The notes below the pieces were generated by a model. The model did no database searches and was not told the DNA's origin. It worked only from the letters and a program-made list of their open reading frames with translations. From a bacterium (lineage in GTDB: Bacteria; Electryoneota; RPQS01), in NCBI GenBank assembly GCA_018812265.1, contig JAHJDG010000101.1:13174-77173 (forward strand): DNA of 64,000 nt, given 5' to 3'. The position numbers and the translations under genes are program-made. Below are positions 2,357 through 19,836 of this stretch, piece after piece (the first letter of the stretch is position 1; each line of letters starts with the position of its first letter).

Positions 2357-3148
2357 ATGTCTCTCACACTGCATACCGTTGACGCGTTTACAAGCGAGCC
2401 GTTTTCCGGGAATCCGGCGGGGGTGTGTATTGTCGAGAAGCCATTGCCCGACGATCTCATGCAGAAAATCGCGGCGGAGATGAATCTTTCCGAGACCGCG
2501 TTTCTCGCTTGCGAAAAGGACGGATACCATCTGCGCTGGTTCACGCCGACTGTGGAAGTTAAGCTCTGCGGACACGCGACGCTGGCTTCGGCGCACATAC
2601 TCTTCGAATCGAAACGACTCAAACCGGATGAGACCGCGCGGTTTCACACTCTCTCGGGGATACTCACGGCTCGTAGTGTCGGGGGCAAGATCGAACTGGA
2701 CTTTCCCGCCTCGGCAGTTCGACCCGCTACTTGTCCGCCCGAAGCGATTCCTTTGATGGGAGCAACGCCGTTGTCCTATCATACCAACGAGTACTGGCAG
2801 CTGGCCGAGCTGGATTCGGAAGCGACGGTGAGGAACCTGAAGCCTAATATTCGATCGTTGTATGCGTTCGGACTCGGTCACTTGATTGTCACGGCGAAGG
2901 CGACAACGCCCGGGCTGGACATTGTCTCGCGGGTCTTTGTTCCGGAGGTGGGGATTGACGAGGATCCGGTGACGGGTTCGGCGCACTGCGTGTTAGCTCC
3001 GTACTGGTCGGGCAAGTTGGGGAAGACGGTGTTGGCGGCCTATCAGGCCTCGCGGCGGGGTGGCAGGCTGGAGATCGAACATCGGGGGGAACGGGTACTG
3101 CTGAGGGGACAGGCGGTGACGGTGATGCGGGCGGAACTCAGGATTTGA
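2357..3148 (+). CDS. PhzF-family phenazine biosynthesis-like isomerase
   Basis: 263 aa, N-terminal VDAFTSEPFSGNPAGV and ETAF motifs of the PhzF/DAP-epimerase-like fold. Confidence 0.8.
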   Translation: MSLTLHTVDAFTSEPFSGNPAGVCIVEKPLPDDLMQKIAAEMNLSETAFLACEKDGYHLRWFTPTVEVKLCGHATLASAHILFESKRLKPDETARFHTLSGILTARSVGGKIELDFPASAVRPATCPPEAIPLMGATPLSYHTNEYWQLAELDSEATVRNLKPNIRSLYAFGLGHLIVTAKATTPGLDIVSRVFVPEVGIDEDPVTGSAHCVLAPYWSGKLGKTVLAAYQASRRGGRLEIEHRGERVLLRGQAVTVMRAELRI

Positions 3149-3512
3149 TTGGGATGGATTTTCAAGAACTTAGCGGGAAGGGGTGCCGAAATTCGGGGGG
3201 ATAGAATATTTTTTTACCAAACGAACTGCGTTACTCCGTGTTTTTTATTGCAGATACGGAGGAAGCGGATCCGAAAAAGTGGTAAACACTGGTAGATCAT
3301 TGTGTTGTGTAATGGGAACCGATTGGCACTTCATGGGTGCAATATACAACATTATTGGGTGAAAGTCAAGTGGTTTGTTGGGTATGTGGCATTGAGAATT
3401 AGGGAGATGAGTTTGGCGGGAGAGGACAGTGGAGGGGAGTTCTCCGATTGGGTGCATGCGGGACGCAGGAGCATCCCGCCTAGTGAATCTAATATTTTTC
3501 TGATCCAGGAGG

Positions 3513-3532
3513 GGCGAATCTGGAGATTCGCC
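3513..3532. repeat. perfect 8-bp stem hairpin GGCGAATC-tgga-GATTCGCC in the island leader
   Basis: Seen directly in the sequence. No flanking T-run, so it is not a clear terminator. Confidence 0.4.
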
Positions 3533-3565
3533 GCCGCGGGTAGTCTGGTTGAAGTGACTGAATCT

Positions 3566-3584
3566 TGATATTGACACAATATCA
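3566..3584 (+). promoter_or_regulatory. palindromic operator-like site TGATATTGacaCAATATCA containing a TTGACA -35 hexamer, upstream of the GmrSD-like gene
   Basis: Perfect 8-bp inverted repeat 37 nt upstream of the ATG. A GAGGAG Shine-Dalgarno lies at 3608-3613. Confidence 0.35.
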
Positions 3585-3620
3585 GGAATCGCCGGAGTTA
3601 AACCTTCGAGGAGTATCAAA

Positions 3621-5207
3621 ATGCCCACTTCTGAAACTCAAGTAGCCTCGGTTAAGATCGATAGGCTTGTTGGCAGAATCAAAGATGGAGACATAAAGAT
3701 TCCGGCCTTTCAGAGAGGCTTTGTTTGGGATCAGGAACAGATTATCGCGCTTCTCGATAGCATCTATAACAACTATCCAGTCGGTTCATTGCTATTGTGG
3801 AGATCAAGTGAGCGTCTGAAGTCAACCAGAAATGTAGCTGGACTCAAGCTGCCTGATCGCGAACCAGAGTATCCAGTGAACTATGTATTAGACGGACAAC
3901 AGCGTCTTTCCTCCATCTATGGTGTATTTAGTACGGACCGCGAGTTTGCCGAATATCTTGGCGCGTACGCTGTAGATGCAAGGGTATTTGACATCGGCTT
4001 TGATCTTGTCAATCTTGAGTTTCTACCACTGTCCAATGCTGCCGATCCACAAAGAATGATTCCACTGAAGAGTCTTTTCAATCCGTCCGAGTTTCTGGTC
4101 ATTCTCGGCAGGCTAAGTCTAGAAGAACAGAAGCTTGCAACTGAACTACACACACATTTCAACAACTACGAGTTTCCAACAGTTACGGTAACGCATCGCG
4201 ATAAACGAGAGGTTGGCACTATCTTCGAGAGAATAAATTCAACCGGTACGAAACTAACCACCCTCGATCTCATGGTGGCGTGGACATGGAGCGAGGATTT
4301 TCATCTACAGGAACAGATAAATCAGCTTCTAGATACTCTGGATGAAAAACGATTTGGAGACTTGCCCGAAAAGACGCTGCTTCAGTCACTGAGTGGAATG
4401 ATTGTCAAATCCACTAAGACGAGATCAATCCTCGGATTGTCGCCAGATGATGTGAGGGGGACTTTTGAATCGATGACGGATGCAATGGAGCGGACAATTG
4501 ATTTCTTGGGGACGGAGTTTTCCGTCGCGTCTAGAGAACTACTGCCGTTTCCACAGCAGATTGTCGGACTAACATATTTCTTCAGCAAAGTAACAAATCC
4601 TACGGCTTCTCAATTGAAGCTCGTTCGCCAGTGGTTCTGGAAAACGACGTTTTCTTATCGTTACTCCGCTCAAACAGATGAGAAAATGGATGCCGACATA
4701 GAATTCTTTGATGGCATGATTGATGGATCGATTGACATTTCCAGTGACTATAAGTATGATATCGCTTTTTCTGATATCATTTTCACTGGTCTGAGCAAAT
4801 CGAATCCGATAGCCCGGGCATGTCTTCTGCTTATGGCACAAAGACAACCTCGTGATCTAACCAACGGTGCCGCAATAGATGTCGGGCAAGCACTCTCTAG
4901 CTACAATCGCAAGGAGTACCATCATATTTTTCCTAAAGCCTTTCTAAGGAAAAGGGGGATTGCAGCCAGCCGTATTAATTCAATGGCCAATATATGTTTC
5001 TTAGCTTCTTCTTCGAATAAGAAGATATCCAGTAAGCCACCGTCCGATTATATCTCCTCGGTTGTTCCGCAGGATGAAAAGAAGGAGATACTCGAATCCA
5101 ATCTGATGCCACTAAAGAACGAAGTCTATTCCAAGGATGACTATGACCAATTCCTCGAAGAGCGAGCACGAATCATGATCGCATATTTGGACAGTCTTCT
5201 ACTTTAG
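3621..5207 (+). CDS. GmrSD-family type IV (modification-dependent) restriction endonuclease, DUF262 + DUF1524
   Basis: N-terminal DUF262/ParB-like block (FQRGFVWDQEQI...YPVGSLLLW, DGQQR motif). C-terminal DUF1524 His-Me finger motif (EYHHIFPK). Gene and leader are markedly lower in GC than the flanks. Confidence 0.75.
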   Translation: MPTSETQVASVKIDRLVGRIKDGDIKIPAFQRGFVWDQEQIIALLDSIYNNYPVGSLLLWRSSERLKSTRNVAGLKLPDREPEYPVNYVLDGQQRLSSIYGVFSTDREFAEYLGAYAVDARVFDIGFDLVNLEFLPLSNAADPQRMIPLKSLFNPSEFLVILGRLSLEEQKLATELHTHFNNYEFPTVTVTHRDKREVGTIFERINSTGTKLTTLDLMVAWTWSEDFHLQEQINQLLDTLDEKRFGDLPEKTLLQSLSGMIVKSTKTRSILGLSPDDVRGTFESMTDAMERTIDFLGTEFSVASRELLPFPQQIVGLTYFFSKVTNPTASQLKLVRQWFWKTTFSYRYSAQTDEKMDADIEFFDGMIDGSIDISSDYKYDIAFSDIIFTGLSKSNPIARACLLLMAQRQPRDLTNGAAIDVGQALSSYNRKEYHHIFPKAFLRKRGIAASRINSMANICFLASSSNKKISSKPPSDYISSVVPQDEKKEILESNLMPLKNEVYSKDDYDQFLEERARIMIAYLDSLLL

Positions 5208-5307
5208 ACTGAATCACCACAGCCGTAAGGTCGATGGCGCAAGTTCTCCTCGATAAAGTCTGAAAATAGATAGACAACCACGTAGGGTTGTCCCTACAGA
5301 AACTCTG

Positions 5308-8082
5308 ATGAACGAGACGAAACACATTTCCGAAAGAGCGTATCCTCACGCCGAGATCGAGGTCAAGTGGCAGAGGATCTGGGAAGAGCGGGGGACGTAC
5401 AAGTTCCATTGGACACCCCCCCTGACCCACCCGCAAGCGGAGGGGAAGAATAGGCCGAAGTTCTACGTGCTGACCATGTTCAGCTATCCGTCGGGAGACA
5501 AGCTGCACATGGGACACTGGTACTGCTACGCTCCGGCCGACACGTTCGCGCGGTTCAAGCGGATGCAGGGTCACGAGGTGTTCGAGCCGATGGGCTTCGA
5601 CGCGTTCGGTCTGCCCGCCGAAAACTACGCGATCAAGACGGGAATCCACCCGCGCATCTCGACCGAGAAAAACGTCGCATTCATGCGCGAACAACTGAAA
5701 CGCATCGGAGCGATGTACGACTGGGACTACGAAGTTAATACGTCCTCGCCCGAATACTACAAGTGGACGCAGTGGTGGTTCCTGCTGATGTATAAGCGCG
5801 GCCTGGCCTACCGCAAGGAAGCGCTGGTCAACTGGTGCCCGGACTGCCAGACCGTGCTGGCCAACGAGCAGGTCAAGGCCGACAACACCTGCGAACGCTG
5901 CGGAAACGAAGTCGCGCGCAAGTCGCTCCGGCAATGGTTCTTCCGCATCACCGAGTACAGCCAGCGGCTTCTGGACGGCCTCGAGACGATCAACTGGCCG
6001 GAAAAAACCAAGGCCATGCAGCGGTATTGGATCGGGAAGTCGGAGGGGACGGAGATTGAGTTCAAAATCCGAAAATCCGAAAATCCGAAAATCGAAAATG
6101 AAGGAAGACCTAATGATGGGGAGGGGATCAGGGTCTTTACGACGCGGGCGGATACGCTGTTCGGGGTGACGTATGTGGTACTCGCGCCTGAGCATTCGCT
6201 GGTACATGAGGTGACGACGGAGGATCGGAAGGCGGAAGTCGAGGGCTATGTGGCGCGGGCTTTGGCGGTCTCGGACGTCGAGCGGGCGGCGGCGGACCGG
6301 CCTAAGACGGGAGTGTTCACGGGCGGTTATTGTGAGCATCCGCTGACACACGAAAAACTTCCGATTTGGGTGGCCGACTATGTGATCGGAACCTACGGAA
6401 CGGGAGCGGTGATGGCCGTGCCTGCCCACGACGAAAGAGATTTCGATTTTGCGAAGAAGTACGGGCTGGAGATACGGGAAGTGATTCGACCGACCCCCCC
6501 CAGCCCCCCCGCAAGCGGAGGGGGATCGGAAAGGCATACCCCCCCCTATGATGGAAGCGCACTGCCGTGCGGCACTACCCCCGTAAACGGAGGGGAATCG
6601 GAAAGGCATACCACCCCCTATGATGGAAGCGCACTGCCGTGCGGCACTACCCCCGTAAACGGAGGGGAATCGGAAAGACATACCCCCCCCTATGATGGAA
6701 GCGCACTGCCGTGCGGCACTACCCCCGCAAGCGGAGGGGAACTCGAAGAAGCATTTACGGATTATGGGGTGATGGTCGGATCAGAGGAATTCGATGGGCT
6801 GGAGTCAGAGGAAGGGATTCGAAGAGTGGGGGAGAGGCTCGAGCAGCTCGGGCTTGGGAAGCCGACGGTGCAATGGCACCTGCGAGATTGGACGGTATCG
6901 CGGCAGAGATACTGGGGTGCACCGATTCCGGTGATCCACTGCCCGAAGTGCGGGATCGTGCCGGTTCGCAAGGAAGAGCTGCCGGTGCTGCTGCCGGATG
7001 ACATTGAAGAGTTCAGGCCCAAGGGGAAAGCTCCCCTCGAAGCGGCCGAATCGTTCGTGAACGCGAAGTGTCCGAAGTGCGGCGGGGCCGGCAAGCGGGA
7101 TACGGATACGCTGGACACATTTGTTTGTTCCTCATGGTATTTCATGCGATATCCCGACGCACGGCTGGATAGCGCACCGTTCGACACCCAACACTTGAAC
7201 TTCATGTTGCCGATTGAGCAGTACGTCGGCGGCAGCGAACACGCGATGGGACACTTGCTGTACGCGAGGTTCTTTGCCAAAGTCGCCCACGATGCGGGAT
7301 ACCTCAAGTGCGAAGAGCCATTCACGAGGCTGGTTCATCAGGGGATGATCCTCAACCACGGCGAACGCATGTCCAAGTCCAAGGGCAACGTCGTCGCGCC
7401 CGAGCCGATCATCGAGGAATACGGCAGCGACGTGCTGCGCTGCTTCCTGATGTTCATGGGGGATTATCAGCAAGGCGGCGAATGGAGCGACAAGGGGATT
7501 GCCGGTGTGGAACGCTTTGTGGCGCGGGTTTGGAGACTCGTGTCGGCCATTGGTAATGGACATCCCGCGAGTGTGACCGAGCTTCCGATTGAACTCGACC
7601 GGAAGCTGCATCAGACCATTCTTGCGGTCGGCAACAGCTTGGAGAATTTCGATTTCCACGGCGGGTTGGCGCGGCTGATGGAGCTCACGAATCAGATATA
7701 TGCGTGGGTTGGCTCAGAACTTAAAGATGTCAAGAGAAGCCCGGCCGCAATCTTGGTGGCAGAGACGCTTCTTCGGCTGTTAGCACCGTTTGCACCGCAT
7801 ATTTCAGAAGAGTTGTGGCAATCTCTGGGGCATACGACAACAATCTTCGACGCTCCGTGGCCGGTTCATGATGAGGAGAAGGCACGTGAAGATCGAGTGA
7901 CGATTGCCGTTCAGATCAACGGGAAGCTGCGGGGGACGGTGGAGGTGGATATGGACGCGGAGGAGTCGGCCGTTCTCGAGGTTGTGTTTGGGCTTGATCG
8001 CTTGAAGCCTTACCTTGATGGCAAGATGGTGGTCAAGCGGATCGTGGTGCCGAACAAGATCGTGAATCTGGTGGTGAAGTAG
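5308..8082 (+). CDS. leuS: leucyl-tRNA synthetase (924 aa, with in-frame low-complexity insertions)
   Basis: HMGH and KMSKS motifs (HMGHWYCY, KMSKSKGN) and class I LeuS architecture. About 80 aa longer than typical because of repeats. Confidence 0.95.
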   Translation: MNETKHISERAYPHAEIEVKWQRIWEERGTYKFHWTPPLTHPQAEGKNRPKFYVLTMFSYPSGDKLHMGHWYCYAPADTFARFKRMQGHEVFEPMGFDAFGLPAENYAIKTGIHPRISTEKNVAFMREQLKRIGAMYDWDYEVNTSSPEYYKWTQWWFLLMYKRGLAYRKEALVNWCPDCQTVLANEQVKADNTCERCGNEVARKSLRQWFFRITEYSQRLLDGLETINWPEKTKAMQRYWIGKSEGTEIEFKIRKSENPKIENEGRPNDGEGIRVFTTRADTLFGVTYVVLAPEHSLVHEVTTEDRKAEVEGYVARALAVSDVERAAADRPKTGVFTGGYCEHPLTHEKLPIWVADYVIGTYGTGAVMAVPAHDERDFDFAKKYGLEIREVIRPTPPSPPASGGGSERHTPPYDGSALPCGTTPVNGGESERHTTPYDGSALPCGTTPVNGGESERHTPPYDGSALPCGTTPASGGELEEAFTDYGVMVGSEEFDGLESEEGIRRVGERLEQLGLGKPTVQWHLRDWTVSRQRYWGAPIPVIHCPKCGIVPVRKEELPVLLPDDIEEFRPKGKAPLEAAESFVNAKCPKCGGAGKRDTDTLDTFVCSSWYFMRYPDARLDSAPFDTQHLNFMLPIEQYVGGSEHAMGHLLYARFFAKVAHDAGYLKCEEPFTRLVHQGMILNHGERMSKSKGNVVAPEPIIEEYGSDVLRCFLMFMGDYQQGGEWSDKGIAGVERFVARVWRLVSAIGNGHPASVTELPIELDRKLHQTILAVGNSLENFDFHGGLARLMELTNQIYAWVGSELKDVKRSPAAILVAETLLRLLAPFAPHISEELWQSLGHTTTIFDAPWPVHDEEKAREDRVTIAVQINGKLRGTVEVDMDAEESAVLEVVFGLDRLKPYLDGKMVVKRIVVPNKIVNLVVK
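6064..6100 (+). repeat. octanucleotide microsatellite (AAAATCCG)x3 plus degenerate copies inside leuS
   Basis: Direct reading. Translated in-frame as KIRKSENPKIENE. Confidence 0.8.
6505..6741 (+). repeat. 72-bp tandem repeat, ~3.3 copies, in-frame inside leuS (24-aa unit GGESERHTPPYDGSALPCGTTPVN)
   Basis: Units at 6517-6588, 6589-6660 and 6661-6732, nearly identical, each flanked by CCCCGCAAGCGGAGGGGA. The same 17-nt motif also occurs at 5428-5446 within leuS. Confidence 0.85.
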
Positions 8083-19738: not shown

Positions 19739-19836
19739 TGGCGGGAACGTCTGGGAATCGAACCCAGCCATCCGCCGTGAGGCGGACGCAAACGGTTTTG
19801 AAGACCGCGGGGGCCACCAGTGCCCCATCCGTCCCC
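19739..19836 (-). tRNA. selC: probable tRNA-Sec (selC), anticodon UCA, long variable arm, CCA encoded
   Basis: Minus-strand fold: T-arm CTGGG-TTCGATT-CCCAG, anticodon loop CTTCAAA (UCA), 6-bp variable stem TCCGCC/GGCGGA, ~98 nt. Only 7 bp of acceptor pairing found by eye (one G-U), so the model is imperfect. selA and selB are in the same window. Confidence 0.55.

Follow-up and report, generated by a model that had tools for sequence, protein, structure and literature searches.

A solitary GmrSD-family gene at a variable site upstream of leuS in an uncultured bacterial lineage

The 64-kb stretch of contig JAHJDG010000101.1 analyzed here (the window, on which all positions are numbered) contains, between a phzF-like gene and leuS, an ATG-initiated open reading frame (ORF) of 528 amino acids at 3621-5207 on the + strand. 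This ORF is a horizontally acquired, compositionally foreign, stand-alone gene of the GmrSD family, and the site directly upstream of leuS at which it resides is a variable hotspot for defence genes and mobile elements in a Calditrichota/KSB1-like lineage. We consider it likely that the gene represents an acquired one-gene cassette, encoding a BrxU/GmrSD-type enzyme that acts alone and probably provides type IV anti-phage defence. While it is a fairly ordinary defence gene, its location is informative: it offers a well-delimited, solitary GmrSD-like gene from an uncultured lineage together with an empty-site comparison.

A foreign gene at a variable site

The locus comprises the gene and its two neighbours:

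2357-3148, + strand: phzF-like gene, left neighbour; Pfam PhzC-PhzF, 215 bits; native composition (GC 0.59, GC at third codon positions (GC3) 0.69)
3621-5207, + strand: GmrSD-family (BrxU-like) gene; 528 aa, with a DUF262 N-terminus, a helical linker and a DUF1524-like C-terminus
5308-8082, + strand: leuS (assigned by Pfam), right neighbour and the conserved gene that anchors the hotspot; orthologues with 62-86% identity in the related genomes L030, L067 and L102-L105

A sliding GC profile (300 nt) falls to 0.42-0.49 over ~3150-5300, with flanks at 0.55-0.62 and a recovery past ~5300. The ORF itself has a GC content of 0.446 and a GC3 of 0.456, compared with means of 0.571 (SD 0.028) and 0.640 (SD 0.051) for the 42 non-overlapping window ORFs of at least 200 aa, among which it is the strongest GC/GC3 outlier. 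The GC profile, the GC3 values and the Pfam assignments of the flanking genes thus bear out the original prediction, made from the sequence alone, of a low-GC GmrSD-like gene between phzF and leuS, whose composition is indeed foreign.

To assess the history of the site, we compared the leuS-upstream junction in seven relatives (L030, L067, L102, L103, L104, L105 and the P0128 contig), which together with the window represent eight genomes. The LeuS homologues carry the names Calditrichota or KSB1. In the nearest genome, L030 (LeuS 82-86% identical), the order is tRNA-Pro(ggg), PCMT, tRNA-Pro(cgg), VTT/DedA, 616 nt and leuS, with neither phzF nor a GmrSD-like gene. The sites directly upstream of leuS are occupied as follows:

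L102 (LeuS 74%): IS200-type Y1 transposase, 2933-3421
L103 (LeuS 74%): 801-aa SIR2 + STAND NTPase protein, 3386-5791; GC 0.385, compared with 0.515 for leuS
L104 (LeuS 71%): EcoRI-like methyltransferase (PADLOC MTase_II, 330 bits) and DUF262-HNH enzyme (REase_II, 271 bits), 3544-5999
P0128 contig (LeuS 68%): 592-aa DUF7380/EMARD_N protein
L030, L105 and L067 (LeuS 62-86%): empty

The gene is thus missing at this position in all seven relatives, as expected from the original prediction of an insert, and no homologue of the window protein was detected in the DNA of the six relatives or in the gene list of the P0128 contig. The cargo in the relatives lies directly upstream of leuS and is co-oriented with it. 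Hotspot cargo amounts to one or two genes (0.5-2.4 kb) and includes no integrase. The presence of five different cargos in eight genomes supports a gain in the lineage of the window and, as a practical lead, identifies the leuS-upstream junction as a variable locus that could be mined for further defence genes in this lineage.

These data also bear on the idea that the gene is a native, vertically inherited housekeeping gene of DNA metabolism whose low GC content is incidental. Its position among core genes, its co-orientation with leuS and the lack of adjacent mobility genes would fit such an origin. However, its extreme composition, its absence from the site in every related genome examined and the fact that its closest homologues among the matches listed belong to other phyla and share only 58% identity with it make this explanation extremely improbable.

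Two tRNA-Pro genes, GGG (622-696, +) and CGG (1538-1614, +), bracket a PCMT-like methyltransferase gene (824-1528), an arrangement conserved in L030 and L067. Between tRNA-Pro(CGG) and leuS, the gene content differs among the relatives, with one or two VTT/DedA genes, an alpha/beta hydrolase gene or phzF, so that variability extends beyond the defence slot itself.

Domain architecture and solitary state of the 528-aa protein

The DUF262 N-terminal domain with a DGQQR motif (residues 91-95) that had been read from the sequence is confirmed by Pfam, since GmrSD_N (DUF262, PF03235) matches residues 15-221 with 111.1 bits (cutoff 33.2) and is detected in 40 of 40 members of the clade. The DUF262/ParB-like NTPase domain accordingly covers residues ~15-221, and in the Foldseek list, ParB/Noc structures rank behind BrxU. 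The GmrS motifs QR, (I/V)DGQQR and FxxxN (Machnicka 2015, PMC4619093) are present as Q31-R32, L90-D91-G-Q-Q-R95 and F202-E-R-I-N206 and are either invariant or at least 90% conserved among 40 homologues.

The C-terminal half is more divergent. Pfam GmrSD_C (DUF1524, PF07510) scores 17.4 bits (E 0.004), below the cutoff of 23 bits, or 18.8 bits for the C-terminal half alone, and reaches E <= 0.01 in only three of the 40 clade members; when only the C-terminal fragment was searched against PDB sequences, nothing relevant was returned. In the AlphaFold2 model (40 homologues; pLDDT 85.8), by contrast with the Pfam score, this domain adopts a predicted DUF1524/HNH-like (His-Me finger) fold. Its nuclease motif reads E432-Y-H434-H435-I-F-P-K ... 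M-A-N457-I-C-F-L-A-S-S-S-N466, in which E432, H434, H435, N457 and N466 are invariant among the 40 homologues, yielding a clade-wide E-x-H-H...N...N signature. The catalytic (E/D)-H-N-N motif of GmrSD has the form (I/L/V)(E/D)H(I/L/V)xPQ ... L(G/A)NLxLLxxxN (PMC4619093). In all 40 members, a His occupies the acidic (D/E) position of the family, and the spacing between the two Asn residues is one residue longer than in the GmrSD motif. H-H dyads also occur in other HNH nucleases, such as the colicin DNases. Mutation of the Asp/Glu of the dyad was used to inactivate BrxU, HEC-06 and Eco94GmrSD (PMC4619093; bioRxiv 10.1101/2024.01.29.577857). Based on its predicted fold and motifs rather than on the Pfam threshold, we assign the C-terminal domain as a His-Me finger of the DUF1524-like type, which goes unrecognized by the Pfam model. 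The earlier assignment of a DUF1524 domain with an HHIFPK motif therefore stands with regard to the motif (residues 434-439) and the predicted fold, whereas the Pfam score stays below the cutoff and H-H replaces (D/E)-H.

By sequence, the sole relative in the PDB is BrxU (E 1e-8 with the single sequence and 4e-16 with the family profile), with a match that is colinear across all three regions. BrxU contains a nucleotide-binding motif, RLFDS, that includes the dimerization serine S42 (bioRxiv 10.1101/2024.01.29.577857). The segment aligned to it reads A-L-L-D-S47, with L44 and S47 invariant, D46 conserved in at least 90% of the homologues, and Arg and Phe not conserved. Among the PADLOC models, the best match is PDC-M55C (216 bits; residues 12-519 against model positions 16-526), followed by HEC-05/BrxU (118 bits).

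More than 3,000 database proteins match the 528-aa protein. The best 120 of these are 51-58% identical and nearly all 524-537 aa long; their named hosts include Verrucomicrobiae, Dehalococcoidia, Acidobacteria and Desulfococcaceae, and their database label is only "DUF262 domain-containing protein". The nearest homologue among the matches listed shares 58% identity. The window gene is thus a member of a divergent clade within the already known GmrSD family, and this large group of "DUF262 domain-containing proteins" appears, as judged from the structural model, to possess a complete but divergent His-Me nuclease domain that is under-called by automatic annotation. Our literature search identified no tested member of the 528-aa clade.

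No partner gene is common to the seven homologue contexts analyzed. Two homologues lie amid housekeeping genes, one adjoins an IS110 transposase, one resides in a defence island alongside a type ISP restriction-modification (R-M) enzyme and ApeA, one is located beside prophage head genes (a protein that was returned at two places, L088 and L089) and one lies within a Mu-like element. In every homologue host examined, the GC content of the gene is below that of its flanks. Plasmids, viral contigs and a few phage records carry more distant relatives (24-45% identity). The family is therefore patchy and mobile.

When the 42 window ORFs were compared with defence models, no Brx, Hma, R-M, Ssp, Dnd, methyltransferase or PDC-M55A/B match was obtained. 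Similarly, Ssp/Dnd genes were not found in the homologue contexts, PDC-M55A/B were not found among the homologue neighbours, and none of the proteins neighbouring the homologues matched a PADLOC model. We call the gene solitary because there is no partner in the window or beside the seven homologues; the claim that it lacks an adjacent methyltransferase, Brx or Ssp partner is borne out in the window, and solitary occurrence is the norm for the 528-aa clade. The same scan of the 42 ORFs returned DinG-type helicase models (1e-102) and a DEDDh exonuclease model (4e-37), which most likely reflect a housekeeping DinG, as well as the candidate PDC-S48 (2e-35) and mad2 (8e-24).

The full-length match to PDC-M55C raises the question of whether the gene could be an orphaned, possibly non-functional component of PDC-M55 that has lost its A and B partners. 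PDC-M systems are multi-gene candidates, for which we know of no experimental test, and our literature search found no mention of PDC-M55. This scenario is highly unlikely, because the ORF is intact at the family-standard length of 528 aa, retains all invariant residues and belongs to a clade whose members lack a common partner in seven contexts, with neighbours devoid of PADLOC matches.

Extent of the insert and conserved hairpins in the adjacent DNA

The following features surround the gene:

3170-3547, + strand: non-coding, native intergenic DNA; 55-88% identity with L030 5355-5750, upstream of leuS
3420-3537, + strand: hairpin-rich conserved motif, from the alignment and RNAalifold consensus of four copies
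3548-3620, + strand: insert-specific leader, 73 nt, GC 0.40; no counterpart in L030
3566-3584, unstranded: interrupted palindrome, TGATATTG-ACA-CAATATCA, with 8-bp arms and a 3-nt spacer; overlaps TTGACA at 3571-3576
5208-5307, + strand: spacer between the stop codon of the gene and the start of leuS, 100 nt; the right edge of the insert lies somewhere inside

The homology of the leader with L030 ends near 3547 and is regained at the start codon of leuS, such that window positions 3548-5307 (1.76 kb, GC 0.445) replace 216 unrelated bases of L030; past 3547, the remainder aligns to L030 no better than shuffled sequences. Upstream of this point, blastn identifies conserved blocks at 3186-3373 (71%) and 3458-3541 (84.5%), and the alignment of 3170-3547, which includes indels, gives no sign of a reading frame in tblastx. 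The first part of this region is also conserved in L102 (2554-2688, 74%), and the intergenic DNA of L067 could not be aligned with the window leader. Since L030 retains homologous intergenic DNA without having the gene, about 80% of the 470-bp leader is native DNA that pre-dates the insert. From these alignments, we place the insert at about 3548-5307. It does not start at 3150, and the earlier view that the entire 470-bp leader belongs to the acquired islet has to be abandoned.

Small proteins potentially encoded in the leader (ORFs 3302-3568, +, and 3245-3628, -) were rejected, as they had no PADLOC match and tblastx against L030 showed no preferred frame. Rfam searches (E <= 1) of window positions 2900-5600 and of L030, L092 and L093 yielded only tRNAs, so the leader is not a known riboswitch, T-box or small RNA. 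The native intergenic DNA also contains a minus-strand sigma-70-like promoter (TTGACT-17 nt-TATATT, 3369-3341), both hexamers of which are kept in L030; it points away from leuS, so that its transcripts would run towards the 3' end of phzF.

The insert-specific leader includes a GGAG Shine-Dalgarno sequence (3610-3613) 7 nt 5' of the ATG. The inverted repeat at 3566-3584, originally described as a perfect palindrome over TTGACA, has the proposed position and overlap but is interrupted by its 3-nt spacer and hence not strictly perfect; it extends to 14-nt arms (3560-3573/3577-3590) with 86% pairing. Perfect arms of at least 8 bp occur in 0.4% of shuffles of 3548-3620 and in 2.6% of shuffles of 3149-3620, those of at least 9 bp in 0.2% of the latter. 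Both this repeat and the hairpin at 3513-3532 (GGCGAATCT-GG-AGATTCGCC, 9-bp arms) are thus rarer than chance within the leader. The hairpin is present with perfect arms as predicted, but because it is identical in L030, it is native rather than an insertion remnant or an imported regulator. For a sigma-70 promoter on TTGACA 3571-3576, the promoter scan gives no -10 partner, although the lineage may use other promoter types. No comparable repeat or conserved operator was found upstream of six homologues, leaving the palindrome as a candidate for an operator or promoter element confined to this copy.

On the 3' side, the spacer contains a hairpin (GACAACC-ACGTAG-GGTTGTC, within 5272-5293) that lacks a subsequent T-run on the + strand, and a marginal 13-nt match, AATAGATAGACAA (window ~5265-5277), to L030 directly upstream of leuS. 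No terminator-like site was found on the + strand between the gene and leuS in the scan. Given this result and the co-orientation of the two genes, leuS may be transcribed by read-through from the cassette.

The motif at 3420-3537 is about 120-150 nt long and occurs in four copies: window 3420-3537 (+), L030 5626-5744, L092 1724-1851 (-) and L093 6582-6735 (+). It contains an invariant stem-loop, GCGGGA-CGCAGGAGCA-TCCCGC, at 3458-3479, and includes the hairpin at 3513-3532. A closing helix, CACUAG/CUAGUG, surrounds this invariant hairpin and a variable hairpin with a CUCCU loop, the loops of the two being complementary (CUCCU/AGGAG); 3' of the closing helix, there is a further hairpin, GGCGAAUCU-GG-AGAUUCGCC. 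The element also carries the sequence GCGGGACGCAGGAGCATCCCGC. Relative to L030, in which they make up the 5' halves of two helices, ~27 nt are missing from the window copy. Compensatory changes are seen in two helices, and eight of the 31 predicted pairs are kept by two-sided changes, in an alignment that comprises only four sequences and has a near-zero RNAalifold covariation term. Neither the L092 nor the L093 copy is syntenic with the window, the former lying downstream of atpA and the latter being flanked by a HAD hydrolase gene and a convergent gene resembling nuoN. A covariance model (R1) scores the four copies, which are its training sequences, with 102-122 bits and, applied to 29 sources, detected no additional copy. 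When metagenomes were scanned for an exact 21-mer, only two non-syntenic contigs were returned, an 18-mer scan of viral contigs gave one match, restricted to the central stem-loop, and Rfam contained no match to the motif. The motif might represent a previously undescribed small RNA or, alternatively, a single-strand DNA element of the REP/MITE type. In L102, the Y1 transposase occupies the corresponding site.

Within leuS, an in-frame tandem repeat at 6506-6741 (+; 72 nt x 3.3 copies, 95% matches) encodes approximate PVNGGESERHTPPYDGSALPCGTT repeats right after the LeuS segment HDERDFDFAKKYGL; L030 lacks the region corresponding to window 6461-6729, and a 25-mer of the repeat also matches L092 4797-4821. 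The window LeuS has 924 aa, compared with 804-882 aa in nearly all relatives listed (one has 939 aa). A shorter repeat (AAAATCCG, x 4.6, period 8 nt) lies in the coding region of leuS at 6064-6099 (+). Farther away, the window contains a tRNA-SeC gene (19739-19836, -) that is also found in L067; the lineage thus uses selenocysteine.

Proposed mode of action and relation to known systems

In the explanation that we favour, a single-gene unit of ~1.76 kb (~3548-5307) was acquired horizontally. It came to lie with native intergenic DNA on its left and the essential leuS gene on its right, at a position in the core genome that takes varied defence and mobile cargo in related Calditrichota/KSB1-like genomes. 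Its product may act without partners, probably as a dimer. The ParB/Srx-like DUF262 domain could bind and hydrolyze NTP via its QR/DGQQR pocket, and NTP hydrolysis would then control the C-terminal His-Me finger nuclease, with H435 as the putative general base and H434, N457 and N466 serving metal binding and structure. The nuclease would cut invading DNA, the likeliest target, by analogy with GmrSD and BrxU, being phage DNA that carries modified cytosines; such a target would make the protein a methyltransferase-independent type IV restriction enzyme. Of the original proposal of a solitary, modification-dependent type IV enzyme, the solitary GmrSD-family assignment holds; modification-dependent cleavage and phage defence we infer from the likeness to BrxU and GmrSD.

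Several points weigh against this interpretation. We found no biochemical or phage data for the clade, and its best PADLOC model denotes a candidate component of a multi-gene system. The C-terminal domain scores below the DUF1524 cutoff and has a His where GmrSD, BrxU and HEC-06 have Asp/Glu. The promoter scan detected no recognizable promoter for the gene, and there is no convincing target-site duplication, integrase or terminal (inverted) repeat around the insert. Moreover, the relatives are few, with a LeuS identity of 62-86%, and the difference from L030 could conceivably reflect a loss in that genome instead of a gain.

The protein could also be a GmrSD-like defence nuclease with another trigger or substrate, such as unmodified phage DNA (a possibility raised for HEC-06), rather than a classical type IV enzyme directed against modified cytosines. 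In favour of this notion, the clade is distinct, as seen from its far higher score with PDC-M55C than with HEC-05/BrxU, its identity with BrxU is low, GmrSD_C goes undetected in 37 of 40 members with His replacing D/E in all of them, and the phage range of HEC-06 differs from that of BrxU. However, the protein resembles BrxU in its overall architecture, in its NTP-pocket motifs and in its best fold match, and nothing points to a specific alternative substrate, so that we regard this possibility as clearly unlikely. More speculatively, the 528-aa clade, which has thousands of members in several phyla, a nuclease domain that escapes Pfam and an invariant E-x-H-H dyad, might form a functionally separate GmrSD-like branch that acts alone on another substrate or trigger. 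As a second, independent idea, the leuS-upstream site could be a lineage-wide hotspot of defence genes, the use of which is tied to the adjacent hairpin element, e.g. through a Y1-transposase/REP-like single-stranded DNA mechanism. We place these tentative ideas on the unlikely side as well. The reading as a solitary, BrxU/GmrSD-type defence enzyme leaves the current understanding of type IV restriction unchanged.

Among the known systems, BrxU from Escherichia fergusonii pEFER (PDB 7p9k/7p9m; HEC-05 in PADLOC) is the best sequence and fold match to the window protein and has the same single-chain arrangement of DUF262, helical linker and DUF1524. Both proteins share QRxFVW and DGQQR, S47 of the window protein aligns with S42 of BrxU, and the C-terminal NxxxL...N..K.P..Y pattern is alignable. 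They differ in length (528 versus 587 aa), are only 14-18% identical and have distinct nuclease motifs (YHHIFP versus DHIYP). Whereas the BrxU subtype is found in or beside BREX, Hma or type I R-M systems, the window gene is not, its neighbours encoding PhzF and LeuS. GmrSD/Eco94GmrSD, an E. coli type IV enzyme acting on glucosyl-hmC DNA, has QR, DGQQR, FxxxN and the GmrD-type H...N...N in common with the window protein and likewise consists of a single gene that needs no methyltransferase. In contrast, the window protein has an HH rather than an (E/D)H dyad and a sub-cutoff GmrSD_C score.

HEC-06, also a divergent GmrSD-like single protein, illustrates that defensive branches exist beyond BrxU and GmrSD. 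It is embedded in Hma systems, has a defence profile distinct from that of BrxU and loses its defence function upon mutation of its DGQQR or EH motifs (Payne et al., bioRxiv 10.1101/2024.01.29.577857). The PADLOC HEC-06 models, however, match the window protein weakly (E 1e-7 to 5e-5) and only at its N-terminus. With PDC-M55, the resemblance is limited to component C, components A and B having been found neither in the window nor near the homologues. SspE and DndI are phosphorothioate-sensing effectors that also combine DUF262 and DUF1524. An effector of this type, sensing a host modification (e.g. phosphorothioate) made elsewhere in the genome and nicking unmodified invader DNA, is a very improbable alternative. 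The match to SspE/DndI is far weaker than that to BrxU, and no ssp/dnd genes were found among the 42 ORFs of the 64-kb window.

Finally, the site itself has counterparts in the core-genome defence hotspots described in E. coli and Pseudomonas pan-genomes. As in these cases, conserved flanks (here PCMT/tRNA-Pro/VTT and leuS) enclose variable defence or mobile cargo, or none. Unlike them, the leuS-upstream site accommodates small cargo of 0.5-2.4 kb without an integrase and belongs to an uncultured lineage, in which eight genomes were compared.

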